A DNA stretch of 64,000 nucleotides from Thermoplasmatota archaeon (GCA_029939595.1 JAOZSQ010000001.1:261722-325721), one strand, 5' to 3'; shown: positions 29,074-49,069, counted from the first letter of the stretch. The notes: generated from the sequence alone by a model not told the origin. Numbers and translations are program-made.

Positions 29074-29690
29074 AGTTTATATTAGTATTGTTGTTTGTTG
29101 TTCCTTGTATTGTTTCAGGCGAATCAAAATATTTGTTTCCTTGGGACTTGTCACAGTGGACATGCTTGGGGTATATTAATCAGATAAAGAATACGAAAAC
29201 TTATAAAACTCTTCAAAAATTATTAAAAAAGAGATCCCATAAATTTTATAAGTCGGCATCTCTTTCTGATCTTAAACTAATTCCAACGAAATATACTGTT
29301 AAATATCCATACCATAAGATACGTATTGATGCATATTCATCTTTGGTTAGGATGATACAAGATTCGCATGATAAGGGTTCCCCATTATATGTCTCATCGG
29401 CTTATCGGTCTCCTTATCTCCAGAATTTATTGTGGAAGAATAGATTGAATGCCGAATATGATGTATCAATGGATGCTTTATCAAACTATGTTAGAACCGC
29501 ATATAAAACGGCTCCACCATGTTATTCGGAACATGCAACAGGTTTGGCTGTTGATTTTTTGAAAACAAATAATTGGTTGCGTGATAATGCAAAGAAATAT
29601 GGTTGGAAACAGTCGTTTGATGGTTCAGGAGATGTAACTAACATTATGAAAGAAAGTTGGCATTATGCTTATATAAAGGAGAAATCATGA
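29070..29690 (+). CDS. secreted M15 (VanY-like) D,D- / L-Ala-D-Glu peptidase, endolysin candidate
   Basis: Signal peptide MKFILVLLFVVPCIVSG. SAYRSPYLQ and SEHATGLAVDF are the zinc-ligand motifs of peptidase M15. Confidence 0.7.
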   Translation: MKFILVLLFVVPCIVSGESKYLFPWDLSQWTCLGYINQIKNTKTYKTLQKLLKKRSHKFYKSASLSDLKLIPTKYTVKYPYHKIRIDAYSSLVRMIQDSHDKGSPLYVSSAYRSPYLQNLLWKNRLNAEYDVSMDALSNYVRTAYKTAPPCYSEHATGLAVDFLKTNNWLRDNAKKYGWKQSFDGSGDVTNIMKESWHYAYIKEKS

Positions 29691-30388
29691 AAAAGTATAT
29701 ACTTTTTCTAGGAATTTTATTATTTACAATGCCTGTCATTGCCGATGAATTGGTGCTTGTTTCAAATCCTTGGCCACCATATATATTTGGAAAGATGGGT
29801 TCATCTGATGTTACTGGAATAACAATAGGTCAATATAATAAAATATTTAAGAAGATGAAGATCAAGGTAAAATATATGATGATACCTTGGCGTAGAGCTT
29901 TACAAGAGATAAAAGAAGGATATGCTGATGGAGCAATAATTTTACAACAGAATTCTGAAAGATCAAAATATATGGTGTTTACTAATATTGTAATGGTTGA
30001 AAACACTTTTATGTTTTATTCCAAAAGGAAATATCCTGGGGGTATGGAATGGAAAACACCGTTGGATTTGGTTGGGTATCGTATAGGTTTGGTACGGGGG
30101 TATTCATACGGACCTATTCAGGCAATGATAGATACGGGATTACCTTTACAAATTGAAATGGTAAGTAAAGAAACACAGTTATTGCCCATGTTAGTTAGGG
30201 GAAATATTGATATATTTCCTTATTCAGAGATGATAGCAAAATATGCTTTTAAATTAAAAGGTATTGATTATGTGGTACATGCTTCAAAGGAAGTGTATAA
30301 AGCATATTATCGTATGGGAATTTCAAAGAAGTCAAAATGGAAAAAAATGATCCCTCAATTTAACAAGATTTTAAAAGAGGTTTTATGA
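29687..30388 (+). CDS. secreted substrate-binding-protein family 3 (SBP_bac_3)-like protein
   Basis: The Met at 29687 has an AAGGAG site. Signal peptide MKKYILFLGILLFTMPVIA. Paralog of the 39784 gene. Confidence 0.5.
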   Translation: MKKYILFLGILLFTMPVIADELVLVSNPWPPYIFGKMGSSDVTGITIGQYNKIFKKMKIKVKYMMIPWRRALQEIKEGYADGAIILQQNSERSKYMVFTNIVMVENTFMFYSKRKYPGGMEWKTPLDLVGYRIGLVRGYSYGPIQAMIDTGLPLQIEMVSKETQLLPMLVRGNIDIFPYSEMIAKYAFKLKGIDYVVHASKEVYKAYYRMGISKKSKWKKMIPQFNKILKEVL

Positions 30389-30852
30389 AAAAGTTTTTGA
30401 TTTTTTTACTTATTGCTTTTTTCACAACAACCGTTTTTGCAGAGAGATATTATATCAGATCAAGAACGGCTCATCTTTTATTGCGACCAAAAATTGGTTC
30501 TAAAAAAGTATTGAAATTGAAAAAGGGTGATTCGGTTGAGTTAATAAAGAGAAAGAAAGTATGGGTTTTTTTGAGACATGGAAAAAAACAAGGCTGGTTA
30601 AATAGGATGTTAATCTCAAAACGGAAACCAAAATTAAGAAAGTCTATTTTTTCTAATAAGGTTGATATTTCCAGTACAGCAAGAAGAAGAGCTTCTTCAT
30701 TCACGAGTGCGGCTGCTTCCAGAGGACTTGTAGCCGATCAAGAAACTATGAAAAATCTACCAACAGCGAATTATGCTGCTTTGCACAAAATTGAATCTTT
30801 GGTGATTGATGAAGAGGAAGCTGTTGAATTTTTAATGTATGAAGGAGATTGA
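30385..30852 (+). CDS. secreted SH3b-domain protein
   Basis: Signal peptide, then YYIRSRTAHLLLRPKIGSKKVLKLKKGDSVELIKRKKVWVFLRHGKKQGWL, a typical bacterial SH3 pattern. Basic C-terminus. Confidence 0.5.
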   Translation: MKKFLIFLLIAFFTTTVFAERYYIRSRTAHLLLRPKIGSKKVLKLKKGDSVELIKRKKVWVFLRHGKKQGWLNRMLISKRKPKLRKSIFSNKVDISSTARRRASSFTSAAASRGLVADQETMKNLPTANYAALHKIESLVIDEEEAVEFLMYEGD

Positions 30853-32445: not shown

Positions 32446-33401
32446 TAACTTTTAAGCAATTTCTAATAGAAGGTATGGGGCAGGTTAAAAGAAATTTTTT
32501 AACTCCTGGAAAAATAGATAATGATGATCTTCGTAAGATTAAATCATTAAATTCTTTAGATCTTAATGGTGATTATTTGGAATGGTTAGCAAAATTTATG
32601 GTTGATAACGAATATGCCAAAAGTAATACTTTAAATAAAAAGGTTTATGCTAAATTGAAAAATATACTTCCACGTTTTGACAGTTTGAAAAATAAAAATG
32701 TGGTTAAAGAAATTCCAAATGGAATGAATTTGGAAGAGTTGGAGTTTGAAATTAATTCATTAGAATCTAAATATTACGCTAATAAGAAAATGGATGTCGG
32801 GGGTTTGAAAGAAGGAGTTGATTATGAAAATTTTTATTTTGGTAATGGTTTTGAGATTTTACTTGTAAAGACACATAAAGGTATAATGAAAATTGGTTCT
32901 GGTACAAAGTGGTGTATAACAAGTGAATGGGGGCAAGATTGGAACGAGTTAGTTGGTGACAGATGTTTTTATGTATGTAGAAATAACAGAGTTAGAAGAA
33001 ACGATCCAATGTATAAAGTTGCTATTCAAGTACAAAAACTTGATAATGAAATTGCTCTTATTTGGGATGCTAAAGATAATGCATATTTGCCTCATAGCAA
33101 AGAATATAAGGAATTGTTTAGAATGTTGGAAATTAAAAATAAATTTGTTTATGTAAAAATTAGAAAGTTTTATCATTTAAGTAGACTTAAAAAGATATAT
33201 GATCAATTGGTTATGTTTAAAGATGAGAAAAATTTAGAAATTGAAATTGAAAGTGATGATATTATTAATCCAAACGGCAAAAAAATTGTGGGTGGTAGAC
33301 ATTATATGATGTGGGCACACGAAGAACAAGGGGTATGGGTGAAATATAACAATTTACCCAATCCATATTTATGGAATTCAAAGGGGGTTGATATAGAATG
33401 A
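32442..33401 (+). CDS. CTS-tagged 'GSGTKWCIT' family cargo protein (third paralog)
   Basis: MITFKQFLIEGMGQVKRNFLTPGKIDNDDL...GSGTKWCITSEWGQDW. Confidence 0.7.
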   Translation: MITFKQFLIEGMGQVKRNFLTPGKIDNDDLRKIKSLNSLDLNGDYLEWLAKFMVDNEYAKSNTLNKKVYAKLKNILPRFDSLKNKNVVKEIPNGMNLEELEFEINSLESKYYANKKMDVGGLKEGVDYENFYFGNGFEILLVKTHKGIMKIGSGTKWCITSEWGQDWNELVGDRCFYVCRNNRVRRNDPMYKVAIQVQKLDNEIALIWDAKDNAYLPHSKEYKELFRMLEIKNKFVYVKIRKFYHLSRLKKIYDQLVMFKDEKNLEIEIESDDIINPNGKKIVGGRHYMMWAHEEQGVWVKYNNLPNPYLWNSKGVDIE

Positions 33402-34480
33402 TTGGGTTTAAGCAATTTCTAATAGAACAATATAGAGGTTCCTTTTTTCATGGATGTGATGAAAGAGCCTTTAAATTTAATTTAGAGAATGGAATTCAGT
33501 ATGATCCTGGTGAAGCATGGTCCCCAGGACAAGTAATAAATTCGGGGGTTAAAGCAGTTTATTTTACTGGTTCTATAGAAACTGCTGCGAGATATGCTGT
33601 TGGTGTGGCTTATAATAGCGAACCGTTTATTATTGAATTCTATCTTAGTGGAAAATCCAAATTTAAAAAAATGAAATTTGATCCGATGGATCGTCCAGAT
33701 TATGATAATGAATTTCGTTTTGGTGATGATGATCTTTTCCAATTGAGTTCTTCTGTTGAAAAATTGTATAGGGATTTAACTGGTGATTCAAGTGCTTTTA
33801 AATTTGTAAAAGATATTAAATTAAGCGGGTTTGAAGAATTGGATGAGATCAGGGGTTTCAAATTACACCAAAATATGATTAATGTGCTTACTCGTAAATT
33901 GGGAAGATCCAGGAAACAGGAGATAAAAAGAGAAATAATGAAACGATTTGAACCAGGACAATTTTCTGAATATTTGGAAATAACCCGTTCTGGTACAATC
34001 GCATTAAATGATGATTATTATCAACATATCAAACAAGTTCAAATGACCACTCAAAAGATCCCACCTTCGGCTTTCAAGTTTGTTTGGGTCCGAACAGCCG
34101 ATCATCCACGATTAAGAGATTCTGATATTATTGAAACGGACAATTTTGGTGAAGAAGAGCTTCCACATGAGTCACAAGATAGAAGTGAACATTTGAGAGG
34201 TTTGTCAATAGATGCCGAATGGGGAATAGTGGATTTTGATGAATGGGAAGGTTATTCTGATCGGTATTCAGAGATTGGAAAGGTTTTAAAAGAGTTGAAA
34301 CCAATGTATAATGACGAATTGGATTCGGATGAACAATCGGATGAATTTAAACGCCTTGCTAATGAATTGGCTGGTTTGGCTGATGAGATAATAAATGATG
34401 AATGGGCTAATCCTCAAGAACAAAATATTACTACTTGGGCGAAAGTTAAAGTAAAAACAGCAGCGAGGTTGGCAAGATGA
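33398..34480 (+). CDS. CTS-tagged cargo protein (FHG motif)
   Basis: MIGFKQFLIEQYRGSFFHGCDERAF. Confidence 0.6.
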   Translation: MIGFKQFLIEQYRGSFFHGCDERAFKFNLENGIQYDPGEAWSPGQVINSGVKAVYFTGSIETAARYAVGVAYNSEPFIIEFYLSGKSKFKKMKFDPMDRPDYDNEFRFGDDDLFQLSSSVEKLYRDLTGDSSAFKFVKDIKLSGFEELDEIRGFKLHQNMINVLTRKLGRSRKQEIKREIMKRFEPGQFSEYLEITRSGTIALNDDYYQHIKQVQMTTQKIPPSAFKFVWVRTADHPRLRDSDIIETDNFGEEELPHESQDRSEHLRGLSIDAEWGIVDFDEWEGYSDRYSEIGKVLKELKPMYNDELDSDEQSDEFKRLANELAGLADEIINDEWANPQEQNITTWAKVKVKTAARLAR

Positions 34481-34899
34481 GATTTAAACAATTTTTGAAA
34501 GAGAAATTCCATGATATGTATGTTTCAATATATACTAAAAAAACAGTGGAAATCTTTAAAAACCCTTCCAGAAAGGAATATAGGGAAGTTATAGCTAGTG
34601 ATTCGGTTCGTGCGTTGTTAGGTCCGAAGGATCTTTATATTTGGAATACGTGGGCGGAATGCCATAACAATGTCAAAGATAAAAGTCCTAAATTTAAAAA
34701 TATGATTGCGGTGGTTATATTTGGAGAATATGGCAAAGATGTGGATGTACAACTTACAGATGGTAATTCGGGTACAAAATGGGATCACAATCCAGAGGTA
34801 TATGATTTTATAATGAATCATTCACTATTAAATAGCATGTTTAGAAGTATTGAAGTAAGTTATTATGATGAAGCGATAGGAGGAGCTTGGCATGATTAG
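34477..34899 (+). CDS. CTS-tagged cargo protein
   Basis: MRFKQFLKEKFHD. Confidence 0.6.
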   Translation: MRFKQFLKEKFHDMYVSIYTKKTVEIFKNPSRKEYREVIASDSVRALLGPKDLYIWNTWAECHNNVKDKSPKFKNMIAVVIFGEYGKDVDVQLTDGNSGTKWDHNPEVYDFIMNHSLLNSMFRSIEVSYYDEAIGGAWHD

Positions 34900-35722
34900 T
34901 TTTAAAAATTATTTAGAAGAACGAGAATCGGTAGATAGGGTTATTAGGGAAGAAGCTAAAGGGGTTTATGATAGACTCAAAAAATTTCTGAAGATGATGA
35001 AACCAAAACAACTGATAAAATATAAAGCATCAGATATTTCGTTAGATATACCTGCGAAAATATTTGGAGGACAATATAAAGATTTGGTTATTCAATTGGT
35101 GGATGAAGATCAAGTTGGTGGTGCTGGTGCAATGTTTAGAAATAATAGATATGATTCGGATGCTGAAAAAGGTATGTTTGGTGATGATTTTTGGAAAAGA
35201 CTAGGGTTGAAACAAGATCCTAAATTAACATATATAGTTCTTCCTAATCCACAAATATCAACTTTTTTTACCGATTATACTTTTGGAAGACCAATATCGG
35301 ATCTGATAACAAGACGTTGGGTTCAAACACTTAATACTATTTTTCCAATATTTCTCCATGAATTTGTTCATTATAAAGATTTGCAAAGATGGAAAGGTGG
35401 TGAAAAAGATTTTTGGAAACCAGGAAATCCTAATCTTAACCATGCACAGGCTTCGGAAGAATATTTTAATAGCCCTGCCGAATTTAATGCTTATTATCAT
35501 CAAGGTGTGCCTCGTATTAGAGATGATTTAGATCGTAGATTTAGCCAGGATAAAATAAACAAGACATTGGAAACTTTTGGTAGTTTTTGGAAAACATTTA
35601 GAAAGTATTATAGTGAAGATTTTTTGAAGAAGTTGGATCAAAGGAATTCAAGGGCATTAAAAAAGAGATTGTATGATCTTTTTTCAACCTTAAAGGATGA
35701 GTATTATAATGAAGAGTTTTAA
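34892..35722 (+). CDS. CTS-tagged HExxH metallopeptidase-like protein
   Basis: MISFKNYLEERES; FLHEFVHY. Confidence 0.5.
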   Translation: MISFKNYLEERESVDRVIREEAKGVYDRLKKFLKMMKPKQLIKYKASDISLDIPAKIFGGQYKDLVIQLVDEDQVGGAGAMFRNNRYDSDAEKGMFGDDFWKRLGLKQDPKLTYIVLPNPQISTFFTDYTFGRPISDLITRRWVQTLNTIFPIFLHEFVHYKDLQRWKGGEKDFWKPGNPNLNHAQASEEYFNSPAEFNAYYHQGVPRIRDDLDRRFSQDKINKTLETFGSFWKTFRKYYSEDFLKKLDQRNSRALKKRLYDLFSTLKDEYYNEEF

Positions 35723-36824
35723 ACAGTTTTTAAAAGAGAAATATGCCGAGGATATGCTGGAATTAGCATTTGCGGAGAGGTTATATACCGATTTGGTTGG
35801 TAAGGTGTTAAAATATGAAAATAAGCCAAGAAAATTATTTTTAACTTCAGGTAAGTTTTTTAAGAAATATTTACCTGTAATTCCTATTGCTGGTAAGTGG
35901 AAAGGTAAGCCTTTTGTGATATATTTTATTTTTGAAAAGTATCAATGTGGAAATACAGCTATGTTTAGGAAAGGATTGAAAGATGATAAATATATTTTTA
36001 TTGGATTACCAGAATTAAGAGGTAATTTTAGGCAAGTGGACTTATGTACAATATCAAAAGAAACTTTGAAAAATGATTGGAAGTTAGTTATAAATGGAAT
36101 TCTTTCACGAGGAAGTTTTAGAAAGAAGTTAAAATCAATTATGATACATGAACTTACGCATTTTATTAAAGATTTGACGTATGGGGAGTTTAGGGATGCA
36201 AAGAATTATAATTCAAAAGATGTTAAAGTATATCATAATCATATAGAGGAGATAGATGCTTTTTATCAGTCCATGTTAAATGATTTTTTGTCTGCTTACC
36301 CAGGAGGCAAATTGAAAAAATGGTTGAAATATGAAAATTTTAAAGAGGATATTTTGATATATAATGAAGGTTGGAAGTTTTATAATGATAAAACAAAAAA
36401 GATGCTTGATTTGAGGTTGCGAGATTTCTGGAAAAATTTTATGGATAGGGATTTTGGAGAAGAAACAAAAGAACAACAAAAAGAAAGGATATTGGATCAT
36501 TTTTATGAAGTTGTTCTTCCAGAAATAGACACATTTAATAATGCAATACCTCGCAGATTTGATTATTGGTATGATTTTATGATGGTTAATTATAAAAAAG
36601 ATTTTGCATTTGAGTTTGATACAGCCAGAAGAGTATTAAAAGATGTAGCAAAGAAGGAATATGATATTAGACAAAAGTATAGTATTGAAAAATTACTTGT
36701 AAAAAGGAAAAAGGCAGCGTTGATGTTTGGGCGTTCAAAAGGAACCGATAATTTTGGACAGGAATGGAAAAGCTTGGATGAGGCTTTTGTTGGTTGGTAT
36801 GAGGAAAATAATGGAAAATTATAA
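35709..36824 (+). CDS. CTS-tagged HExxH metallopeptidase-like protein
   Basis: Internal Met (MKSFKQFLKEK); IMIHELTHF. Confidence 0.5.
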   Translation: MKSFKQFLKEKYAEDMLELAFAERLYTDLVGKVLKYENKPRKLFLTSGKFFKKYLPVIPIAGKWKGKPFVIYFIFEKYQCGNTAMFRKGLKDDKYIFIGLPELRGNFRQVDLCTISKETLKNDWKLVINGILSRGSFRKKLKSIMIHELTHFIKDLTYGEFRDAKNYNSKDVKVYHNHIEEIDAFYQSMLNDFLSAYPGGKLKKWLKYENFKEDILIYNEGWKFYNDKTKKMLDLRLRDFWKNFMDRDFGEETKEQQKERILDHFYEVVLPEIDTFNNAIPRRFDYWYDFMMVNYKKDFAFEFDTARRVLKDVAKKEYDIRQKYSIEKLLVKRKKAALMFGRSKGTDNFGQEWKSLDEAFVGWYEENNGKL

Positions 36825-37047
36825 ATGTTTAAAGGTTCATAGAGACGATAGTACCCATTTTCATGTTTATCAGTGTAAATGTGGAAAGATTTTTGAAATG
36901 CCCGATAGTGCTTGTTGTTGTTGCATTTTCACAGAAGAAAATATGAAGGATATTGATAAGTATTACAAAGGTTTAGAAGTTGATTGTCCAGAACTTAATA
37001 GAAAGTTAACCAAAGAAGAATTTGAACATGAATTTGGAAAATACTAA
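36811..37047 (+). CDS. small Cys-rich (zinc-binding?) protein
   Basis: MENYKCLKVH...CKCG...CCCC...C. Internal start, overlapping the previous stop. Confidence 0.35.
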   Translation: MENYKCLKVHRDDSTHFHVYQCKCGKIFEMPDSACCCCIFTEENMKDIDKYYKGLEVDCPELNRKLTKEEFEHEFGKY

Positions 37048-37715
37048 TGAGATTCAAACAATTTTTGCAAGAATCACTTGCTTTTGTGAAAAAGAAAGCA
37101 GCCGATGGGGATATAAAAAGTGTTGGCGAATGGTTGGATTGTGATCCATCTGAAATAGATTTTAATTATAAATTAGAACCCATCACCAAATTTAAGAAAT
37201 CCATAGATGAAATGCAAGGAACTTATGATGAGTTCCCAAAAGATAAAAGAAGAACAGATAAGATTGTAAATGAGTTGAAAAAAGGTGGCAAACCATTGGC
37301 TATTTTTGTAGATCCAGAAGATAATTTTATTATGGAAGGAAGACATCGGATTGTTGGTTTTTGGATAGCTGGTTTGAAAAAGGTTCCGGTGTTTTATGTG
37401 AAGTGTAAAAAGTTAAAAGAATCTTATATTTCTCAAATTCCCAAATTAACCTTTAAGCCGGTTTCTGATTCGGTTTGGGAAACCATTCAGGATGAGGGAT
37501 TAGATGAAGAACAAAATAAACCTAATCGCCAAAGTTGGGAAATGGCAGAATTAAAAGTATCAACAAACGATCAAAAAATGTTGAAAGGATTTGATGATGA
37601 TACTTTGGAAAAATTCAACGATTTTGATATCAAATTGAAGGATAAATACAAATTAAAGTATATAGACCTCATAGACTACGATAAAGGGAAGATTACAATT
37701 GTAAGGGTATTTTAA
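37047..37715 (+). CDS. CTS-tagged ParB-like nuclease domain protein
   Basis: MRFKQFLQESLAF, and PLAIFVDPEDNFIMEGRHRIVGFWIAGLKKVPVF, which matches the ParB N-terminal-domain GxHR motif. Confidence 0.5.
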   Translation: MRFKQFLQESLAFVKKKAADGDIKSVGEWLDCDPSEIDFNYKLEPITKFKKSIDEMQGTYDEFPKDKRRTDKIVNELKKGGKPLAIFVDPEDNFIMEGRHRIVGFWIAGLKKVPVFYVKCKKLKESYISQIPKLTFKPVSDSVWETIQDEGLDEEQNKPNRQSWEMAELKVSTNDQKMLKGFDDDTLEKFNDFDIKLKDKYKLKYIDLIDYDKGKITIVRVF

Positions 37716-37722
37716 AGGTATT

Positions 37723-38142
37723 ATGGCAACATTTAAAGAATATCTTATTGAAGCAGATAAGAAATTAGAAAAGCTTGTTTGGGATTTTAGAAAAAAAGAA
37801 GAAAAAACTTGGGAATGGAAAACTGATAAACAAGCCATGAAAGGAATGTGTCAAGATATTACAAGACGTTTAGAAAAATATTTGAAAAAAAATGGGTATA
37901 AAGCAAATAGGGTTCCAGGTTATTATAAAGATGTATCGGATGATTTTGAACCAGAAGGAGAAAATTGGGATTTTGATGATTGGGAAGATTATAGAGAAAA
38001 TTTTGATAATAGTTGGACCCATTGGTGGGTCTTGGTAAATAATCGTATTATTGTGGATGTGACAGCAGATCAGTTTCATCTTGGAGAAGAAGATGAATAT
38101 CGGGTGGTTATAACGAGGAAGGGAGACAGAGATTACGATTAA
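37723..38142 (+). CDS. CTS-tagged cargo protein
   Basis: MATFKEYLIEADK. Confidence 0.6.
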   Translation: MATFKEYLIEADKKLEKLVWDFRKKEEKTWEWKTDKQAMKGMCQDITRRLEKYLKKNGYKANRVPGYYKDVSDDFEPEGENWDFDDWEDYRENFDNSWTHWWVLVNNRIIVDVTADQFHLGEEDEYRVVITRKGDRDYD

Positions 38143-38190
38143 ACGAGAAATAAATTAAATTCAAATAACAATAAAATAACGGAGGATAGA

Positions 38191-38898
38191 ATGAAATTAG
38201 TTCTTTACCCATGTGGATTTTTAGTTAGTTATTATGATGGATTTATTAATGAATTAAAAAATAATGGAATTGTTTTTAATTCTTATCTTGGGCTTTCTGG
38301 TGGCGCAATAAGCTCAGTTACATCCTGTTTGGATATTGATTCCAAAAAAATTTGGAATGATATTGAATGTGATCTCTGGCAGGACCAGAAACCAGGATTT
38401 GTTAGCCGGTTCTTTAAACGAGAATTTAAAACACGAATAGTCGGTAACACAGCCGAACAAGAAATTCTTGATAAAATAAATGGGAAGGTAGTTATTGTCG
38501 CTGCTAAAGTACCCTCCTTTGATCTTACCTATTTTACACATTTTGAAACTGTTGATGATCTGAGAAGAAAAATGATGGCATCATCAACTTTGCCATATCT
38601 AATGTACCCATTTCCAGCCAAAATAAAAGATGATTATTATGTGGATGGTTGGTTTGGTTTGTTCAATAGATTGAATTTTCATATAAATAGTGAAAAGGCA
38701 ATTATTTTAAGGGCTAGTCCAGGATTTAAAGTGAGAATGTGTAAAATCGGAGATCATATTTGGAGAGTTAAAATACTGCTTCCAAAAATGATTTGGAAAA
38801 TATTTAGACCAACTAAAGAAATCATGTTAGATTGGTTTGAGGAAGGTAAAATGGCGGGACAACAATTTTTAGATAAATATTATATGGAGATTAAATGA
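38191..38898 (+). CDS. patatin-like phospholipase candidate
   Basis: GLSGGA (GxSxG nucleophile) and YYVDGWFG (DGx catalytic Asp). GGAGGATAGAATG ribosome-binding site. Confidence 0.35.
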   Translation: MKLVLYPCGFLVSYYDGFINELKNNGIVFNSYLGLSGGAISSVTSCLDIDSKKIWNDIECDLWQDQKPGFVSRFFKREFKTRIVGNTAEQEILDKINGKVVIVAAKVPSFDLTYFTHFETVDDLRRKMMASSTLPYLMYPFPAKIKDDYYVDGWFGLFNRLNFHINSEKAIILRASPGFKVRMCKIGDHIWRVKILLPKMIWKIFRPTKEIMLDWFEEGKMAGQQFLDKYYMEIK

Positions 38899-39437
38899 AA
38901 TTAATGTTATTGAAAACAGAGTTGGATGAATTGCTCTCTTTTATGGAGAATGAAGCAACAACTTTGGGTATTGGACGAGAAGATATTGATAAAATAGAAG
39001 TAGAAACAGCAGCTAATATGCGGTTTACTTTTCCTAGTCATACTAGTCAGTTAGAATTAATTAGACGTGTTACCAGACAGGTTGCTTCTAGTTTAAGTTT
39101 TACTGAGGAAGCTTTAGATGATATTGGGTTAGCTATTGATGAGGCTTGTGCCAATATTATAAATCATTCGTATACAGAATCAAGAAGTGGATTGATTACA
39201 GTTGATTTTGAATTGGATCAATCTAAACTTGTTATGAGATTAATTGATAAAGGTGAAGCAGGACAAACTTTTAATCCAGAATTACTCAATCCAGTGGATA
39301 AAGAAAAATATCTTAAAGTTCTGACTAAGGGCGGATTGGGTGTGTATCTTGTAAAGAAAATTATGGATGAAGTTGAATATACAGTTTGTCCAGGTATTTC
39401 TAATTGTTTAACAATGGTTAAATATACAGGTAGGTAG
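38895..39437 (+). CDS. RsbW/SpoIIAB-like anti-sigma factor serine kinase (GHKL ATPase)
   Basis: N-box DEACANIINHSY, G-box GGLGVYLVKKIMDEV. About 180 aa, typical of partner-switching kinases. Confidence 0.6.
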   Translation: MKLMLLKTELDELLSFMENEATTLGIGREDIDKIEVETAANMRFTFPSHTSQLELIRRVTRQVASSLSFTEEALDDIGLAIDEACANIINHSYTESRSGLITVDFELDQSKLVMRLIDKGEAGQTFNPELLNPVDKEKYLKVLTKGGLGVYLVKKIMDEVEYTVCPGISNCLTMVKYTGR

Positions 39438-39439
39438 TT

Positions 39440-39784
39440 ATGAAAACGCTTGAAATTATCACTAAACATGGAAATAATGTGTTAGTTATTGTGTTAAAAG
39501 GTCTTTTAAATGCTGATACTAGTCCAGGATTGGAAAAGACACTTATTGATGTTGTGGAGCAAGAATCCAAACCTCAAATTTTGTTGGATATGAAAGAATT
39601 AACTTATATTAGTAGTGCTGGTATTGGTTGTTTTATTGGAGTGATTAAAAGAATTAGAGTTAAACAAGGAGATCTTAGATTTTGTTCTCTTGATTCTAAA
39701 GTTATGCGAGTTTTTAATCTTTTAGATATGGCCGATTTTTTTCAGTTTTTTGAAACACAAGAAGAAGGAGTGAAAAGTTTTTAA
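39440..39784 (+). CDS. STAS-domain anti-sigma-factor antagonist (RsbV/SpoIIAA-like)
   Basis: VLKGLLNADTSPGLEKTL...ILLDMKELTYISSAGIG. 114 aa. A Ser in ISSAG is a possible phospho-acceptor. Confidence 0.6.
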   Translation: MKTLEIITKHGNNVLVIVLKGLLNADTSPGLEKTLIDVVEQESKPQILLDMKELTYISSAGIGCFIGVIKRIRVKQGDLRFCSLDSKVMRVFNLLDMADFFQFFETQEEGVKSF

Positions 39785-40533
39785 TGAAAAAGTTAATATT
39801 GTTTTTAATTGTGTTTTGTTTTATAGCAACAAACTGTTTTTCTGAAAATTTGTTTACAGTAACAGCAGAACCATATCCACCTTATGTCGGTCCAAAACTG
39901 AAAAATAATGGATGGACTTGGGTGGTTGCTAAAACTGCTTTGGAGAGGGTTGGATATAAAGCAAAATTGAAATATTTACCTTGGGCTAGAGCACTAATGA
40001 CAACTAAAGCAGGTAAAATAGATGGATTATTTCCCGCATTCTTTACAGTGGAAAGAACAAAAACATATTTATATTCAGTGCCGATAGCAGAAGCAAGAAC
40101 AGGTTTTTTCAAACTTAAAAAACGAACAGATATTGTTTTCAATGGCAATCTGAGAACAATGACAAAATATAGAATTGGAGTGGGTAGAGGTTATGCTACA
40201 AGTCCTGAATTTGACAATGCAACCTATCTAAAGAAAAGACTACAAATCAAATCAATACAAAGTTTGAAAATGCTTTGGAAAGGTAGATTGGATTTGGCAA
40301 CAGGAAGTGAATTAGTTGATGGTTATAATCTAAAACAACTAGAACCAAAATATCCTGGAATATCAAAAAAAATAATGTTTGTGGAACCACCTCTTACTAT
40401 TCAGTATTGTCATATGGCAGTATCAAAGAATGCACCCAACGCAGCACAAAAATTGGAAGATTTTAATATAGGTATGAGAATGATAATGTTGGACGGTACT
40501 TATATGAAAATTTTTAAGAAATATAATAAGTAG
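39784..40533 (+). CDS. secreted SBP_bac_3-like substrate-binding protein, paralog of 29687 gene
   Basis: Signal peptide MKKLILFLIVFCFIATNCFS, and EPYPPYVGPK parallels NPWPPYIFGK. Confidence 0.5.
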   Translation: MKKLILFLIVFCFIATNCFSENLFTVTAEPYPPYVGPKLKNNGWTWVVAKTALERVGYKAKLKYLPWARALMTTKAGKIDGLFPAFFTVERTKTYLYSVPIAEARTGFFKLKKRTDIVFNGNLRTMTKYRIGVGRGYATSPEFDNATYLKKRLQIKSIQSLKMLWKGRLDLATGSELVDGYNLKQLEPKYPGISKKIMFVEPPLTIQYCHMAVSKNAPNAAQKLEDFNIGMRMIMLDGTYMKIFKKYNK

Positions 40534-40592
40534 GTTTTTATGAATTATACAGAGTTAGGAGCATCTATTACTAATTTACATTTGTCAGTTTG

Positions 40593-40985
40593 TTATTTCT
40601 TTTTACTATTCTGTTTACATAGTTTGGTTAGTTCTTTGGTACACTTTTTTTGATTTTTTGACTTTTGACAAGCTTTCTTGGCTTTTTGACTACAAGAACC
40701 TTTATAAGCACCATAAACGACACCTGTTACAGTCCCAATAGCAAGACCATACATACTACCAACTATAGCACCTAATCCCCCTGAAAGTTTCACATCATTT
40801 TTTCCTTGTCCAGATAACTTGGATACCGCTGCCATTCCCAAACCAGTGCTAACTGCACCAACACTTGAACCTATAGTACCTCCACTGGCTCCAGAAGCAA
40901 TTGCACTTCCTAGTTTGGAACTCTTGATGTGTTTGATACTTCCTGGTTTGGCTTTCTCTGTTAAATAACCTCTTCTATTAATCAT
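40593..40985 (-). CDS. glycine-zipper membrane protein with basic Cys-containing C-terminus
   Basis: Runs of GxxxG/SxxxG repeats (GASGGTIGSSVGAVSTGLGMAAV...GGLGAIVGSMYGLAIGTVTGVVYGAY). AGGAGAGATTATG ribosome-binding site. Confidence 0.55.
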   Translation of the reverse strand: MINRRGYLTEKAKPGSIKHIKSSKLGSAIASGASGGTIGSSVGAVSTGLGMAAVSKLSGQGKNDVKLSGGLGAIVGSMYGLAIGTVTGVVYGAYKGSCSQKAKKACQKSKNQKKCTKELTKLCKQNSKKK

Positions 40986-40993
40986 AATCTCTC

Positions 40994-41395
40994 CTATTTA
41001 TTTTTTTTTAAAGCGTTTATCATCGCTCGGTCTACCATATCCTTCCCACGATTTTTCAGTTTAGGTGGTTTGAAATCTCCCAAATTTGGATATTTATTGG
41101 CGATTTGTTTTCCTTGTTTCCTTGTTGTGAATGTTTCAAAATTACAGTCATCCATACTTGCTTGTTTTATACCATCACATACTTGTTCTTTTATCCAATC
41201 CGCATTTTTCATGCATTTGGTGTAGTTCTTTTCAACTTGTTTTATACATTTTTTCGTTTCTATTTTGTTTCGCCTATTTTTAAGTTTTGTGTTTACCTTG
41301 GAACCAAATTCTTTGACTTTTGTAACACCCATTTTTAATGCCGATGCAATTCCTTCATCTAACCTATTTTGTTTTATATGACATCTATTAATCAT
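40994..41395 (-). CDS. basic Lys/Cys-rich protein
   Basis: The second Met was chosen (MINRCHIKQ) because the RBS-plus-start string AGGAGAGATTATGATTAATAG duplicates that of the 40593 gene. Confidence 0.5.
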   Translation of the reverse strand: MINRCHIKQNRLDEGIASALKMGVTKVKEFGSKVNTKLKNRRNKIETKKCIKQVEKNYTKCMKNADWIKEQVCDGIKQASMDDCNFETFTTRKQGKQIANKYPNLGDFKPPKLKNRGKDMVDRAMINALKKNK

Positions 41396-41503
41396 AATCT
41401 CTCCTATAAAAAATATATTTATCATTATTTATATAGTCTCTTCATAAATAATAGAAAATCAGATAACACTATTTTTGGAACTCGTCTTTTTGACGATGCT
41501 TTT

Positions 41504-41511
41504 TATAAATA
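41504..41511 (+). promoter_or_regulatory. T4-type late promoter TATAAATA
   Basis: Exact box about 80 nt upstream of the sheath gene. Confidence 0.4.
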
Positions 41512-41556
41512 AAGTAAAAGATTTAAGACAATCAAAAAATGAGTAAAATTTAAAAT

Positions 41557-41564
41557 TATAAATA
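41557..41564 (+). promoter_or_regulatory. T4-type late promoter TATAAATA
   Basis: Exact box about 25 nt upstream of the sheath gene's CAGGAGG site. Confidence 0.45.
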
Positions 41565-41589
41565 GGAAATTATTTTCAGGAGGAATAAG

Positions 41590-43848
41590 ATGGCGTTTAG
41601 TTTATCCCCTAGTGTTGACGTAACTGAAAAGGATCTAAGTGTATCAGTAGCAAATTTGCCTTCTTCAAAAACTGCAATGGTTGTTAAAGCAGCAACCGGT
41701 GAGGCTTTGAAAATTGTTCAGGTAACTAGCGTAGGTGACTTGGAAACTATATTCGGTTTCCCAACAAATTTTAACTATAAGGACTGGTTCAATGCATGGA
41801 ACTTCCTACAATATGCAAATTCACTTTATTGTGTTCGTCCATTGTCAACAAAAGCCCATAACTGTGCAGTTGCACTTTCAGGTGGGACCGGACAAGCTGA
41901 CGCTCCGGCTGCAATAGTTGACGCAGATGGTAATCCAACATTAGACGATAAAGGTGTTCAAACATACGGTGCAGCAAAATTAGGTACTGGTATGAAAGTT
42001 AATGAAGCAGTTAGTTGTGGAAAATTGTATAATTCAGATGTAGCAGAATTGAGACTCAATGCATTAGCAGAAGTCCCTTCCCTCACTAAAACATTCTTTG
42101 ACGTATCTATTGATGGCGTTTCAGGTGAAATTACTTCTAAAATTGTAAGTAACTTGGCAGGAAAAGAAATTAAATACGATAATAAAGAATACTATATTGA
42201 AGAAAATGTTTGGGAAAAAGCAGGTATTACAGAAGAATTGATGGATTCAGAAGGTGAAGTTACTTTAATTAAAAATTTTAAAGCAGTTAAAGTAGACCAA
42301 AGAACCGATGACGAAAAAACAGCAGAAAAAGATCCTTATTATACCAAAAAAGTGGTTATTGCTAAAGTATCAGCTTCTAAAAAGCTTCTTCTTGAAATGA
42401 CTGCCGATAATCCAGCACTTCCTGTTATGAGTAAATACGGCGTGACAGGCGCAGAAGTTAAAGAAGATCCAACAGGCTCATTTAAAGTTGCCGGTGCTGT
42501 CGCACCTAAATTGGTTCTCTATAACAGATATGTTACAAATGAACAAGATGTCGCAGTTTCAGTATGTTCATCAAAAGATTCTTGGAATAAACCTCTGTAC
42601 CTCGGAACAGCAGTTAAATTCTCAGACTTCTTTGACTATGAACCAGAATGGGATCAAGGACAATTCGTTATGATCGTGTTTAAGAAAAACCCACAAGGTA
42701 ACTACGAAAATAAAGAAGAATGGTTGCTCTCATATAACGTGAAAGGTAGAGATCATAATAATAGTAACATCTTCGCTGAAGAAGTTATTAAAAATAAATC
42801 AAAATACCTCTACGTTAAAGTAGGAACCAACGGCGATCCAGTTAATACCTCTTGTAACGAAATGATTGAACTTCAACATTCAACTTTTGAATCAGTTACT
42901 CCAAGAGAAGCTGACGTGTTTCCAACCATTTCAACTGAAGCTTATAAAAAATCAGCTATCGTTAACGCATGTGAACTCTTCTCAGATCCAGATTCGTTTG
43001 ATATTAATATCCTCGTGCAACCAGCAGAAGCACCTAATAAAATGTCAAACCTAGCTGAAACTAGAAAAGACTGTGTGGCTGTTATCGGACCATACGAACA
43101 TGATAATTTACTCGGTAAATCAAACGGCGAAGCTACTGCCTATATGACAGGAAAATACGGAACAGTTGCAGGTAAACCCGAATCTAAAGTGTATTCAGCA
43201 TTCGGTACATACTCAGCAGTATACGGTAATATGAAATATCAATACGATAAATACAACGATCTTAATCGTTGGGTTCCAGTATTGGGTGACGTTGCAGGTC
43301 TATACGCAGCAACAGATAAAGATTTAGACCCTTGGTGGGCACCAGCAGGTCTCTCCAGAGGTAAAATTAAGAATTGTATCAAACTAGCTTTCAATCCTAA
43401 TAAAGCTCATAGAGATGAATTGTATTATAATGCAATCAACCCAATTATGGGTGTGCCAGGAGAAGGAACAGCTATCGTTTGGGGTCAGAAAACAGCTACC
43501 GCCAAACCTTCAGCTTTCAACAGATTGAACGTAAGACGCTTGATGATCACGATTGAAAAATCAGTGGCTACATCAGCTAGATACTTCTTGTTTGAATTTA
43601 ACGATTCATTTACTAGAAACTTCTTCAAAGGTATGGTTGACCCATATCTCGGTGGAATCCAAAGTAGACGTGGATTGTACGATTATCTGGTTGTCTGTGA
43701 CGACTCTAACAATACACCAGAAATTATTGATCAGAATGGCTTGTGTTTGGATATATATGTTAAACCTACGAAAGTAGCTGAATTTATCAAAATCCAAGCG
43801 GTGGTCGTTAAAACTGGGGCGAGCTTTTCCGAAGCCATAGGAGCCTAA
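41590..43848 (+). CDS. tail sheath protein (T4 gp18-like)
   Basis: The N-terminal ~85 aa parallel T4 gp18 (…IVQVTSVGDLETIFG…AWNFLQYANSLYCVRPL against …QIKQVTNEVDLVNTFG…AMNFLQYGNDLRVVR). 752 aa. Confidence 0.85.
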   Translation: MAFSLSPSVDVTEKDLSVSVANLPSSKTAMVVKAATGEALKIVQVTSVGDLETIFGFPTNFNYKDWFNAWNFLQYANSLYCVRPLSTKAHNCAVALSGGTGQADAPAAIVDADGNPTLDDKGVQTYGAAKLGTGMKVNEAVSCGKLYNSDVAELRLNALAEVPSLTKTFFDVSIDGVSGEITSKIVSNLAGKEIKYDNKEYYIEENVWEKAGITEELMDSEGEVTLIKNFKAVKVDQRTDDEKTAEKDPYYTKKVVIAKVSASKKLLLEMTADNPALPVMSKYGVTGAEVKEDPTGSFKVAGAVAPKLVLYNRYVTNEQDVAVSVCSSKDSWNKPLYLGTAVKFSDFFDYEPEWDQGQFVMIVFKKNPQGNYENKEEWLLSYNVKGRDHNNSNIFAEEVIKNKSKYLYVKVGTNGDPVNTSCNEMIELQHSTFESVTPREADVFPTISTEAYKKSAIVNACELFSDPDSFDINILVQPAEAPNKMSNLAETRKDCVAVIGPYEHDNLLGKSNGEATAYMTGKYGTVAGKPESKVYSAFGTYSAVYGNMKYQYDKYNDLNRWVPVLGDVAGLYAATDKDLDPWWAPAGLSRGKIKNCIKLAFNPNKAHRDELYYNAINPIMGVPGEGTAIVWGQKTATAKPSAFNRLNVRRLMITIEKSVATSARYFLFEFNDSFTRNFFKGMVDPYLGGIQSRRGLYDYLVVCDDSNNTPEIIDQNGLCLDIYVKPTKVAEFIKIQAVVVKTGASFSEAIGA

Positions 43849-43902
43849 TCACAGTGATGTGTTAAAATCAACACAGTAAAGTTGCTGAGTTGAAAAAGAA
43901 AT

Positions 43903-43931
43903 AGGAGGTTTTTCGGAACCTCCTTTTTTTA
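43903..43931 (+). terminator. rho-independent terminator
   Basis: AGGAGGTT-tttcgg-AACCTCCT hairpin followed by a 7-T run. Confidence 0.6.
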
Positions 43932-43938
43932 TGTTCTC

Positions 43939-43966
43939 TTGACTTAATAAATAGATAGTATATACT
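43939..43966 (+). promoter_or_regulatory. sigma70-like promoter TTGACT-16-TATACT
   Basis: Upstream of the 43985 gene. Confidence 0.35.
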
Positions 43967-43984
43967 AATTATTTAAGGAGAATT

Positions 43985-44932
43985 ATGCCAACAAATATAG
44001 TGTATACATATCAAATAGTTAAAGAATTTATAGAAAATAAAGGTTGCGAGTTAATTTCTACAACATATCAAAATTGCAAAACTGATTTAGAAATTAAATG
44101 TGAATGTGGAAACATATTTTTTCGTAGTTTTGATCATTTCAAAAATTCTAAACAAAGAAATTGCAAGAAATGCCGATATATCAAATCATCAAAATCCCAA
44201 CGTAAGTCCTTTTCAGAAGTAAAAACAAATATAGAAATAACAGGATGTGATTTACTATCTACAGAGAACGATTATAAGAATATTAAATCTAAGTTGCATG
44301 TTAAATGTAAGGATTGTGATAATACTTTTTTAAGAACATATGAGAAAGTTGTTAACCAAAAACAGTTCTTTTGTTCTGAATGTACTAATTTTTCCCGATC
44401 TAAAAAACATACCCGATTTTTTCAATCAGTAAAAGATGAAATTGATGCTACTGGTTGTGTGCTTTTATCAACTGAATATATTTCTAATAATGATCCGCTT
44501 CATATTAAATGTAAGGAGTGTAATAGTACATTTTATAGAACGCTTTCTGTTTTTCAAATGCATGAAGCATATTATTGTGATGTGTGTTCTAAACATCAAT
44601 CTAAAGATGTTCGTAAGGTGGAAGAATATTTAAAATTTCAAAAATTTAATTACGAGAAAGAATTCCGTTTTTCTGATTGCCGAGGCAAGAAATACCCATT
44701 GCCTTTTGATTTTGCCATTTTTAAAGAAGATGGTTCCATTAATTTTTTAATAGAACATATGGGAGAGCAACATTTTACTCCAAAGGAATGTTTTGGTGGA
44801 GAGGAGGCTTTTAAAAAGACTCTTATTAATGATGATACGAAGGTTAGATATTGTGAAGAAAACGAGATAGATTTGTATTATACTTATCCAAATATTGATC
44901 CAGATAACATTCGTTTTAGGAAGATTTGTTGA
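43985..44932 (+). CDS. zinc-ribbon-repeat protein with C-terminal DUF559/Vsr-like PD-(D/E)xK nuclease motif
   Basis: Three ~75-aa repeats (IE..GC.LLST.Y...KC.xC.N.F.R...C..C), then LPFDFAIFKEDGSINFLIEHMGEQH. Confidence 0.4.
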   Translation: MPTNIVYTYQIVKEFIENKGCELISTTYQNCKTDLEIKCECGNIFFRSFDHFKNSKQRNCKKCRYIKSSKSQRKSFSEVKTNIEITGCDLLSTENDYKNIKSKLHVKCKDCDNTFLRTYEKVVNQKQFFCSECTNFSRSKKHTRFFQSVKDEIDATGCVLLSTEYISNNDPLHIKCKECNSTFYRTLSVFQMHEAYYCDVCSKHQSKDVRKVEEYLKFQKFNYEKEFRFSDCRGKKYPLPFDFAIFKEDGSINFLIEHMGEQHFTPKECFGGEEAFKKTLINDDTKVRYCEENEIDLYYTYPNIDPDNIRFRKIC

Positions 44933-45026
44933 CAGTGCAAGAATCCATACGGGTCCGAGATTTAACCGAGTGGCATTTAGATGTAATTAAAAAACATGAT
45001 ATAGGTCTTGACAATTTCATAGCATC

Positions 45027-45055
45027 TTGACAGGGTTTTTTTGGTTTGCTATGAT
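45027..45055 (+). promoter_or_regulatory. sigma70-like promoter TTGACA-17-TATGAT
   Basis: A second TTGACA lies 19 nt upstream. The element is upstream of the 45086 gene. Confidence 0.35.
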
Positions 45056-45085
45056 TAAGTTTTAATTAATTTTTGGGGATAATGA

Positions 45086-46156
45086 ATGATTAAATTGCAA
45101 TTACACCAAAAACTTTCTTATTATGCAAGTAAAGATAGGGAAGGATTTGAATTAACTTTGGATGAAGCGGATATATTAATTCAGGTATTACAAAATCATC
45201 CTGATTATAACGAAATTATTGGATGTGGAATAGATAGAATAGTTATAGAAGGAGGAATTTTTTTTCTTATTAGAAGAGATAGTAATAAGGTTAAGTTGGA
45301 TTTGCGTAAGTGTGTGTATGGTGGTGGAATGATGGATGACAAAAGTGACATGGAGAAAATGTATGAAGCGTGTCGGATTGCCATCATGGATTATAGAGAA
45401 GAGTTTGAGATTAACCAAATTAGAAGTAAAGTATATTGTCCTTATACTGGAGAGTTATTAACCAAAAAAACATCATATGTTGATCATATGCTTCCTTTAA
45501 CTTTTAAAAAAATAATAGAACAATTTATAGATCATGAAGATTTATCTTTAAGTGATATAAAATTTATTAAATTTATTGAATATGGTGGGTGGTATAATTT
45601 ACCTTCACAATTAAAGGAGTCGTTTATAAAATATCATAGGGAGTGTGCTATATTGCATTTGTTGAAAATTCCAGGTAAATCTGAAGATATTTTAGAAGAT
45701 TCTTCTAAGGAAAATATTCCGTTTAGAACGAGTTTTAATTTAACGGTGTTCAAACAGGGTTCATTCAAAGACACCAAATCAAAATCTTTTAAATATTATA
45801 AATCAGACAGGCCAACTTTATTTTATATAGAAGAAAGTGATGATCCTGTAAAAAACAAATTTTTAAAGTCGTTTGCTGGTGTTATGGGTTCATTTACTAC
45901 ACATATTTTAAGAAAGTATTATCCCATAAAAAAACTATTGGAAGGTGATTTATTGTCTTCAATATTTGAAGAATATGTGAATAATCCTTCTTTAATTTCC
46001 AATAAAAATGGTGAAAAAACGGTTCATGAAAAAATGTTAGATGGTTATGCGAATGAAGAGGTTAAAATGAGTTTAATGAACATTTATCATCGGATTAGAG
46101 AAGGGTATTATGATGAACATAAGTTTCAATTAAAGCAAAAGGATAATGTTGCATAA
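45086..46156 (+). CDS. putative HNH-family endonuclease
   Basis: CPYTGELLTKKTSYVDHMLP (C-x-Y-x-G...DH..P) and later YHRECAILH. Confidence 0.35.
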   Translation: MIKLQLHQKLSYYASKDREGFELTLDEADILIQVLQNHPDYNEIIGCGIDRIVIEGGIFFLIRRDSNKVKLDLRKCVYGGGMMDDKSDMEKMYEACRIAIMDYREEFEINQIRSKVYCPYTGELLTKKTSYVDHMLPLTFKKIIEQFIDHEDLSLSDIKFIKFIEYGGWYNLPSQLKESFIKYHRECAILHLLKIPGKSEDILEDSSKENIPFRTSFNLTVFKQGSFKDTKSKSFKYYKSDRPTLFYIEESDDPVKNKFLKSFAGVMGSFTTHILRKYYPIKKLLEGDLLSSIFEEYVNNPSLISNKNGEKTVHEKMLDGYANEEVKMSLMNIYHRIREGYYDEHKFQLKQKDNVA

Positions 46157-46190
46157 AGATAAATAAGTGTAAACAATAATTGAGGTTTAC

Positions 46191-46973
46191 ATGAAGAGTT
46201 TCAAGCAATTTTTATTAGAGACGAGGGATTCTCAGCGTGAGATAAGGGCTATTGCTGATGAATTTTTTGATAGTTTTGTTGATCACATAGAGAGTTATCC
46301 GAAGGAGCAGGTTATTTTACCCAAACCGGAGGATGCATTTGATCATATGTTTTTAGATATGAAACGGATAGGTGATTATATTCGGATTGGAAGGTATTCG
46401 GTGTTAAAGGATTTTTTAAGGGATGCTTCCAGGCATATGCAGGTGATTATCACATCAATTGAGTCAGGTCGTTTTTTACCTAGTGGTAGTGCTGGTACAT
46501 TTGTTTTTCCTAAGAGTCAATATAAGCAGATGAAGGATACTGTATTGGTTGTTGGTGTACCTATTAAAGCGATTCAATTTGTTATTCAGATTTTCAAGAC
46601 CCAGGAAGATCCCAATAAGGCGTTTGGTAAGATAAAGGACCGTTGGAAAGTAGCTACTGAGAAGATATCAAGGGGAACTTTTATACATGAGTTAACTCAT
46701 GCATATGATTATTATGTATCTGAGGGTCGGTTTACTGATGCGGAGGGCATAGTCAAATCTGGAGATGATGAAGCAGGTTATTATGCTAGTCAGCATGAGG
46801 TTAATGCTAGGTATTCTGATACGATAGCTCAGTTGGATGGTGTCAAGGGCGATTTAGACAAGTATGATTATATTAAGCGATTTATGGAGATGTTTGTTGG
46901 TTGGGATGTATTGGATTATTCTCAACAGAAGAGGTTAATAAAGAGAGCCACAATGGAGTGGTATGAGAGGTAG
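46191..46973 (+). CDS. CTS-tagged HExxH metallopeptidase-like protein
   Basis: MKSFKQFLLETRD; FIHELTHAYDYY. Confidence 0.5.
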   Translation: MKSFKQFLLETRDSQREIRAIADEFFDSFVDHIESYPKEQVILPKPEDAFDHMFLDMKRIGDYIRIGRYSVLKDFLRDASRHMQVIITSIESGRFLPSGSAGTFVFPKSQYKQMKDTVLVVGVPIKAIQFVIQIFKTQEDPNKAFGKIKDRWKVATEKISRGTFIHELTHAYDYYVSEGRFTDAEGIVKSGDDEAGYYASQHEVNARYSDTIAQLDGVKGDLDKYDYIKRFMEMFVGWDVLDYSQQKRLIKRATMEWYER

Positions 46974-48394: not shown

Positions 48395-49069
48395 TTACAC
48401 AAACTGGTTATCGTATTCTGAATTAAATGCTTGCAAACCGATATTTTTTATCATTTCTTTTCTCCATTTATAGTTTCGTTCTGGTATATCCCGCCAATTA
48501 AGAGTAAAGGGTGCTAATTCATTGGTGCCTTTTATTGTTTTTTTCCATAACTTATGAAAGTGATTTTCTCCGTGTGGAATGGAGAGGAGAACATTTTTTT
48601 GAGATATGGGAATTACGTTTGTATAAAAATCCCCCCAAATTTTGTCTTCTACATAAGCTATTTCTGTAGCGATTAACACATCAAGTCTTATTCCTTTTAT
48701 AAATGGTCTTATGCTATTGGCAATGATCCTAGATCCATTTTTAAAGATTATTGTTAGGTCATTGCAATGGTCTATTAATGGTGATCCTTCCAACATCAGT
48801 TTTATTTTTTTAATTTCTTCTTTAGCATAATCCAATTTTGTTAAAAATAATCCTATAGTTGAGTATTGGTTATAGCAAGCATACCATGCGGTGTATAGTC
48901 TTAATGCTGTGCTTGAGCCACATTGTCTGGATGAGTTGATTACTGTGAAGTTATTTTCTTGGATATGTTCTAAAAGGGCTTCATCGTGATCCCGAAGTGT
49001 GAGTGGAATTAATCCTTCATCGTAGTTTATTATTTTACAAAATTCTGCGAATTCTTTTAATGATTTCAT
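48395..49069 (-). CDS. terminase-large-subunit-like ATPase domain only (no nuclease domain)
   Basis: Walker A NSSRQCGSSTAL and Walker B VLIATEIAYV, collinear with the 8206 terL ATPase half. 224 aa. Confidence 0.6.
   Translation of the reverse strand: MKSLKEFAEFCKIINYDEGLIPLTLRDHDEALLEHIQENNFTVINSSRQCGSSTALRLYTAWYACYNQYSTIGLFLTKLDYAKEEIKKIKLMLEGSPLIDHCNDLTIIFKNGSRIIANSIRPFIKGIRLDVLIATEIAYVEDKIWGDFYTNVIPISQKNVLLSIPHGENHFHKLWKKTIKGTNELAPFTLNWRDIPERNYKWRKEMIKNIGLQAFNSEYDNQFV

Follow-up and report, generated by a model that had tools for sequence, protein, structure and literature searches.

Bacteriophage T4 packs a hypervariable set of proteins into its head (IPI, IPII, IPIII and the enzyme Alt), each behind a roughly 10-residue leader in which positions 4 and 7 are aromatic, position 8 is aliphatic and position 10 is Glu; capsid targeting is directed by positions 4 and 7, gp21 cleavage by positions 8 and 10 (PMC9026906). 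Polyvalent proteins are likewise delivered with phage DNA, and their metallopeptidase (MPTase) domains consist of an HExxH helix followed by a Glu helix, with an Asp three residues after HExxH in one phage clade (Iyer et al. 2017, PMC5512222). Group 2.2 (T4-related) jumbo phages encode, in one to three copies, a 'SprT-like metallopeptidase' that has been proposed to cut host proteins (Iyer et al. 2021, PMC7824862). Here we describe genes that resemble all three systems in a 64,000-nucleotide stretch of Thermoplasmatota archaeon assembly GCA_029939595.1 (JAOZSQ010000001.1:261722-325721). This stretch, hereafter the window, belongs to the genome of a large, T4-related tailed phage.

Four genes of the window, which we call A, B, C and D (Table 1), encode proteins that open with a T4-like leader. 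Behind it, A, B and C carry a common domain with an HExxH motif, and D carries an EGRHR motif. We consider it somewhat probable (roughly 55%) that A, B and C are diverged paralogs in a gluzincin-type metallohydrolase family that are carried as head cargo, ejected and cleave proteins, and that D is a further cargo enzyme. T4-type leader-tagged cargo is known, and so are injected polyvalent proteins with zincin and ParB domains; what is new is the unnamed family and its solo, leader-tagged architecture. If packaged and active, such enzymes would be at work within the first seconds after infection begins and ahead of transcription, a level of phage counter-defence that has been little explored.

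The HExxH family of genes A, B and C

The initial annotation of the window, made from its sequence, had paired a packaging tag with an HExxH motif in genes A, B and C, and all three pairings were recovered. Gene B is counted here from its MKSFKQFLKE start (the mechanical open reading frame, ORF, begins at 35697), and its product extends about 120 residues beyond the HExxH domain. Across the 19,662 residues of the non-nested plus-strand ORFs, HExxH occurs three times against 0.49 expected by residue shuffling (P = 0.004), each time in a leader-bearing gene. BLASTP aligns A with B (E = 1e-5) and B with C (E = 1e-4), and A and C fall in the same register, giving one consistent alignment with the pattern W ... 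HExxH..D ... Y.....E..A.Y. By this alignment A, B and C are distant paralogs. In B (HELTHFIKD) the Asp is shifted by one residue towards the C-terminus relative to other family members.

A profile of the three proteins without their leaders, run exhaustively against 1.84 billion representative proteins, matched 623 representative clusters (50% identity) at E ≤ 1e-3, with A as the top match (6e-106) and B at 9e-89. We measured column conservation in a MAFFT alignment of the best 150 of these 623 matches, using gene C numbering. HExxH is present in all 150, followed 30-45 residues downstream by E..A.[YFWH] in 139. H166, E167, H170 and D173 are kept in 147/150, and conservation is similarly high at Y197 (149/150), E203 (150/150), N205 (134/150), A206 (149/150) and R252 (143/150). 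The signature HExxHxxD ... YxNxPxExNAxY is, as a sequence pattern, a gluzincin-type arrangement. The obvious candidate for the third zinc ligand is the invariant Glu that lies 30-37 residues past the second His (E197 in A, E181 in B, E203 in C). Shuffle statistics and column conservation together rule out a chance occurrence of HExxH; since the motif occupies aligned, conserved columns among homologs, the refutation envisaged in the initial annotation, chance motifs at non-conserved positions, fails.

Two subfamilies can be distinguished: subfamily i, with HEFIHYLD / YYNSPxEFNAYYQE and about 240 residues, to which A is closest, and subfamily ii, with HELTHAYDD / YLxxxHEINARY and about 350-400 residues, of which C is a member. 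B is an outlier to both. C also matches phrog_15811, a group of unknown function, at 2.6e-8. The long homologs are polyvalent proteins with the HExxH domain at their C-termini: one of 2,207 residues carries ART-PolyVal and DUF5662, one of 920 residues carries a 2',5'-ligase (2H)/Acb1-like domain, and two others have PARP-like regions. A, B and C thus share their domain with proteins of the polyvalent kind, but differ in standing alone behind a T4-type leader rather than as parts of fusions.

Among 50,697 deposited phages, subfamily ii was found in 45 Vibrio Schizotequatrovirus records only (for example ValKK3 ORF158, annotated as hypothetical), and relatives of A only in the 440-kb Salicola phage SCTP-2 (gp462) and a 484-kb uncultured phage. 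A tblastn search of deposited phages gave no match for the K-rich family consensus, for one subfamily i member or for B. In 185,579 species genomes, subfamily i appeared on two contigs of metagenome-assembled genomes. A search of IMG/VR with a 9-sequence subfamily alignment returned 32 subfamily i loci, mostly on contigs of tens to more than 200 kb, and the G+C content of the eight loci inspected ranged from 29% to 62%; a further homolog search with the family profile returned two proteins and added nothing. With so few matches in deposited phages and metagenome-assembled genomes, and with large contigs in IMG/VR, the family appears essentially restricted to large, mostly uncultured phages. 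It is new and unnamed, almost confined to phages, large, nearly absent from cultured phages and bacterial genomes, and has no Pfam or NCBIfam model, so that a name and known substrates for it would give an annotation to hundreds of huge-phage proteins now called 'hypothetical'. Being cultured, SCTP-2 offers a practical experimental model for it.

Profile comparisons point to zincins below threshold. Among 62 members, the recurrent weak matches in Pfam and NCBIfam were zincins only, namely Peptidase_M76 in 9/62 and M90 in 7/62 (best M90 E-value 1.6e-3), with single weak matches to M91, WLM, Tox-MPTase2/3 and SprT-like. The family consensus gave Peptidase_M76 and SprT-like as its two best Pfam matches (4.4e-4 each), both aligned over about 75-88 residues upstream of and through HExxH, followed by M61 and DUF3267. 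Gene C matched CLCA_X at 1.6e-3 over residues 160-253. Pfam MPTase-PolyVal (PF18818) gave no match to A, B or C at E ≤ 1, and for the 62 members it is missing from the 25 listed of the 35 families matched; a sequence-profile search of the PDB returned no match for the A-C family or for the family of D.

An AlphaFold2 (AF2) model of C (m7540e004bc4e; mean predicted local distance difference test score, pLDDT, 71.7; predicted template modelling score, pTM, 0.73) is confident over residues 140-260. It has an N-terminal helix (12-35), three strands (52-55, 83-88 and 117-120), the HExxH helix and the Glu helix, with pLDDT below 50 over residues 89-137. This order agrees with the zincin core of polyvalent-protein metallopeptidases (PMC5512222). 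The helical context claimed for HExxH in the initial annotation is borne out in the model of C, and the candidate third ligand, a residue that the annotation had left to be located, lies on a helix predicted with pLDDT above 90.

The known families differ from A-C in several details. A conserved His that ends strand 2 in the phage clade described in PMC5512222 is not seen in the family alignment. The SprT-like proteins of jumbo phages occur in the same kind of phage with a similar copy-number pattern and a proposed action on host proteins, and SprT-like is a joint best Pfam match of the A-C consensus; SprT, however, has a third His where the A-C family has an invariant Glu, and leaders are not discussed in PMC7824862. 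These jumbo-phage proteins, exemplified by APU01787.1, may belong to the A-C family. MtfA (M90) and Atp23 (M76) share HExxHxxD, with a Glu as third ligand (predicted in A-C), and are the families matched below threshold in 7-9 of the 62 members.

Table 1. Positions of genes A to D, their motifs and other features (nucleotides of the window unless a locus is named)
Feature	Position	Strand	Description
Gene A	34892-35722	+	ORF, 276 aa; leader resembling the T4 capsid-targeting sequence plus zincin-like domain, nearest subfamily i
Gene A leader MISFKNYLEE	34892-34921	+	Predicted propeptide, cleaved after Glu
Gene A HEFVH	35357-35371	+	Residues 156-160: H156, E157, H160; then D163
Gene A YFNSPAEFNAYY	35462-35497	+	Y191, E197; E197 is the predicted third zinc ligand
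Gene B	35709-36824	+	371 aa; leader MKSFKQFLKE plus zincin-like domain
Gene B HELTH	36147-36161	+	Residues 147-151: H147, E148, H151
Gene B YHNHIEEIDAFY	36231-36266	+	Y175, E181; E181 is the predicted third ligand
Gene C	46191-46973	+	260 aa; leader MKSFKQFLLE plus zincin-like domain, subfamily ii
Gene C HELTH	46686-46700	+	Residues 166-170: H166, E167, H170 on predicted helix 161-176; then D173
Gene C YYASQHEVNARY	46779-46814	+	Y197, E203; E203 on predicted helix 201-216
Gene D	37047-37715	+	222 aa; leader MRFKQFLQE; EGRHRIVG at residues 97-104
Gene D EGRHR	37335-37349	+	Residues 97-101, at the N-terminus of helix 98-107, after a strand
SCTP-2 gp462	5647-6399 (L053)		ASV44477.1; cultured phage; leader MKLEQLFE; annotated hypothetical
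ATP-dependent DNA ligase	23110-23922		PF01068 and PF14743; phrog_114 at 5e-63
tRNA nucleotidyltransferase/CCA-adding enzyme	27658-29073		PF01743 at 1.7e-32
Tail sheath gene	41590-43848		Phage_sheath_1 and 1C above Pfam cut-off

The shared leader and gene D

At least 25 plus-strand genes between about 6.8 and 38.1 kb start with M-x-S/R-F-K-Q-F-L-x-E, and gene C adds one more outside this array. In the window leaders, F or Y occupies positions 4 and 7, L position 8 and E position 10, with the leader of D one residue shorter. T4 IPII and IPIII start MKTYQEFIAE, and IPI starts MKTFKEF. The tag proposed in the initial annotation is this shared N-terminal leader, which is a close match to the T4 capsid-targeting sequence (CTS). 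Compared with the handful of such genes in T4, the number in this window is large, and no T4 internal protein is known to be a metallopeptidase or a ParB/Srx protein.

The leader codons vary synonymously (F as TTT/TTC 13/8, E as GAA/GAG 14/11, four Leu codons), and the DNA upstream of the leaders is not conserved. Selection on the leader therefore acts at the peptide level, and the same two observations rule out that the leader functions as a DNA element, for instance in recombination or regulation. Short homologs of the HExxH family show a related feature in other phages: [LIVMF]xE ends within residues 6-16 in 86 of 130, against 10-42 in control windows. On other phage contigs, the genes around the HExxH homolog share a leader particular to the phage in question, such as MLxxQLQEA (L019), MKFK(I/L)xE (L040), MKLRxILxE (L024) and MKLEQLFE (SCTP-2). 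A local leader joined to a common effector domain is the pattern that would be expected of a capsid-targeting system co-evolving with its scaffold and protease. Such short, phage-specific leaders could provide a handle for predicting head cargo in uncultured phages by sequence alone.

Two other leader-bearing groups deserve mention. The 360-residue protein at 33398-34480 has a weak ART-PolyVal match (E = 0.095, residues 16-111) and may be an Alt-like ADP-ribosyltransferase cargo. At 9933-15258, five tandem paralogs share a much longer common N-terminus, MISF(K/R)LFLEKRSHADQNPKISVV, with Glu at position 9.

Gene D is unrelated to A-C. Its product has a ParB/Srx-fold domain at about residues 20-125 and a separate C-terminal domain at about 130-222. 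A search at E ≤ 0.01 returned 16 proteins: D itself, 13 homologs of residues 20-125, and two that share the C-terminal domain only. D is modular, as its C-terminal domain is found elsewhere joined to other N-terminal domains. The N-terminal domain conserves YDEFPKD and F(V/I)MEGRHR, and E97, G98, R99, H100 and R101 are invariant in 10 aligned homologs. The EGRHR motif lies where ParB/Srx proteins have their phosphate-binding motif, and D shares with them, including P1-type DdrB-like domains, a G-R-H-R at the N-terminus of a helix; DdrB-ParB is itself phage head cargo. PHROG 8071 ('ParB-like', E = 0.0024) is the sole profile signal for D. In one IMG/VR homolog, a classical ParB motif, IDGLHRLAKA, stands in tandem with a D-like domain. 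In two multidomain IMG/VR proteins (L012 4794-7937 and L013 7422-9395), the D-like domain lies between repeated G(V/M)AEG linkers, an arrangement that resembles a polyprotein with prohead-protease sites behind each Glu.

Together these observations support a ParB/Srx-type fold for D. The activities of this fold include nuclease, NTPase, kinase and reductase (PMC5512222). Because its invariant EGRHR should bind nucleotide phosphate, D is most likely an NTP-binding or NTP-hydrolysing enzyme, and possibly a DNase. The initial annotation had read D as a tagged protein with a ParB-like nuclease motif: the pairing of tag and EGRHRIVG and the fold hold up, whereas nuclease is just one of several activities found in that fold.

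Proposed packaging, ejection and targets

On our preferred reading, the leader would dock A-D on the scaffolding core of the prohead, and a gp21-type prohead protease would cleave it after the Glu. The mature proteins would remain beside the DNA inside the head until infection, when they would be ejected into the cell. In the zincin-like proteins, the two His of HExxH and the downstream Glu would bind zinc (H156, H160 and E197 in A; H147, H151 and E181 in B; H166, H170 and E203 in C). The motif Glu would serve as general base, in a pocket lined by the near-invariant Asp three residues past the motif, the Tyr and the C-terminal Arg. They would cut host proteins or co-injected phage proteins ahead of any phage gene expression, and D would act as an NTP-dependent enzyme. 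Going further is possible but doubtful: the family (at least 623 clusters) may be one of first-strike zinc proteases directed against host immune or envelope proteins, and the array an 'unbundled' polyvalent protein in which each effector, counting the ParB/Srx enzyme, the ligase and the CCA-adding enzyme, is tagged separately.

Several observations weigh against the preferred reading. No Pfam, NCBIfam or annotated PHROG model reaches its cut-off for the A-C family (best 20.5 versus 25.2 bits), so direct assignment to any of these models was rejected, and hhalign against E. coli MtfA aligned the motif only (15 columns, probability 13.5%), with no structural match. The ParBc and ddrB-ParB hidden Markov models gave no match at E ≤ 1 for D, 11 of its homologs or its family consensus. 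There is no prohead protease or scaffold gene in the 64-kb window, which is part of a 426,929-bp contig (NCBI/Logan) on which the exact protein C is recorded. In Vibrio phages the homolog stands alone as a gene and begins with no more than a short MIIFE, and the same MISF..(F/Y)L.E leader is found on the ATP-dependent DNA ligase and the CCA-adding enzyme. Because the profile matches are sub-threshold, the strand region of the model is weak and the MtfA alignment is confined to the motif, we label A-C zincin-like only, an assignment that is coherent in motif and modelled topology but sub-threshold. Of the zinc-metallopeptidase reading in the initial annotation, a homologous, conserved HExxH with a candidate third ligand stands, whereas packaging, injection and the cleavage of host defence proteins are inferred.

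The targets could also be phage proteins, with the zincins trimming or activating co-packaged cargo in the head or just after ejection rather than acting on the host. The C-terminal position of the homologous domains in polyvalent proteins fits this idea, since such domains have been argued to process polyproteins, for example in P1 DdrB (PMC5512222), and the window encodes a large set of potential head cargo. We nevertheless consider it unlikely: this cargo is made from separate genes with their own leaders, so there is no polyprotein to cut, the three diverged paralogs suggest several different substrates, and the G(V/M)AEG linkers resemble prohead-protease sites, not zincin sites.

A further question is whether the leader targets the capsid at all, or whether A-D are ordinary intracellular proteins whose leader serves turnover, localisation or chaperone binding. 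The ligase and the CCA-adding enzyme, normally cytoplasmic, would be unusual head cargo, and the tag might therefore mean something else; either nucleic-acid repair enzymes travel in the head or the tag has another meaning. That the window is without a prohead protease or scaffold gene, and that host-like metabolic and regulatory genes follow downstream of the array, could be taken the same way. Against this, the leader agrees with the T4 CTS position by position in a T4-related phage, the leaders of other phages differ by phage but always end in hydrophobic-x-Glu, AE|G-type linkers precede D-like domains in polyproteins, and T4 packages an enzyme, Alt, in the same manner (PMC9026906). A leader with no role in packaging is, in our view, distinctly improbable. 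Least probable of all is that the HExxH domain is a non-peptidase module, whether another hydrolase or an inactive binder that blocks a host factor: it would suit the lack of any curated peptidase model above threshold, but hundreds of diverged sequences keep the full catalytic set, the general-base Glu included, invariant, which is rare in mere binders, and each weak profile match is to a peptidase family.

Phage setting and neighbouring genes

The tail sheath gene supports the relationship to T4. Its product is 40% identical to sheaths of T4-like vibriophages and 33% to those of Acinetobacter and E. coli T4-like phages; its match to the T4 gp18 domain III model is sub-threshold (21.2 versus 27 bits). 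Tube and baseplate genes follow downstream. The T4-late-promoter-like TATAAATA occurs at 41504, 41557, 49720 and 49756, directly 5' of the sheath and tube genes, and this consensus is found 19 times window-wide against 12.4 expected. We found no nucleotide similarity to the region among deposited phages. On the minus strand at 48395-49069, among the tail genes, a 224-residue ORF partially matches the terminase large subunit (phrog_5989, 1.6e-20) and could be a terminase gene in split or fragmentary form.

A host-like block (38191-40533) separates the tagged array from the tail genes. It encodes a patatin-like phospholipase, an RsbW-type HATPase_c_2 kinase, a STAS anti-sigma antagonist and a solute-binding protein of the SBP_bac_3 type that has a signal peptide; further signal-peptide proteins are encoded at 29070-30852. 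Gene C is sited between the tail sheath and tail tube genes. The gene before it (45086-46156) has only a DUF3223 match and a match to a PHROG of unknown function, and just upstream of that neighbour is a homing/HNH endonuclease with repeated zinc-ribbon units (43985-44932; phrog_559, 9e-48); it is the one clear endonuclease beside C, where the initial annotation had placed a nuclease-rich island. Between B and D, a small Cys-rich, leaderless ORF (36727-37047; CKCG ... CCCC) overlaps the end of B.

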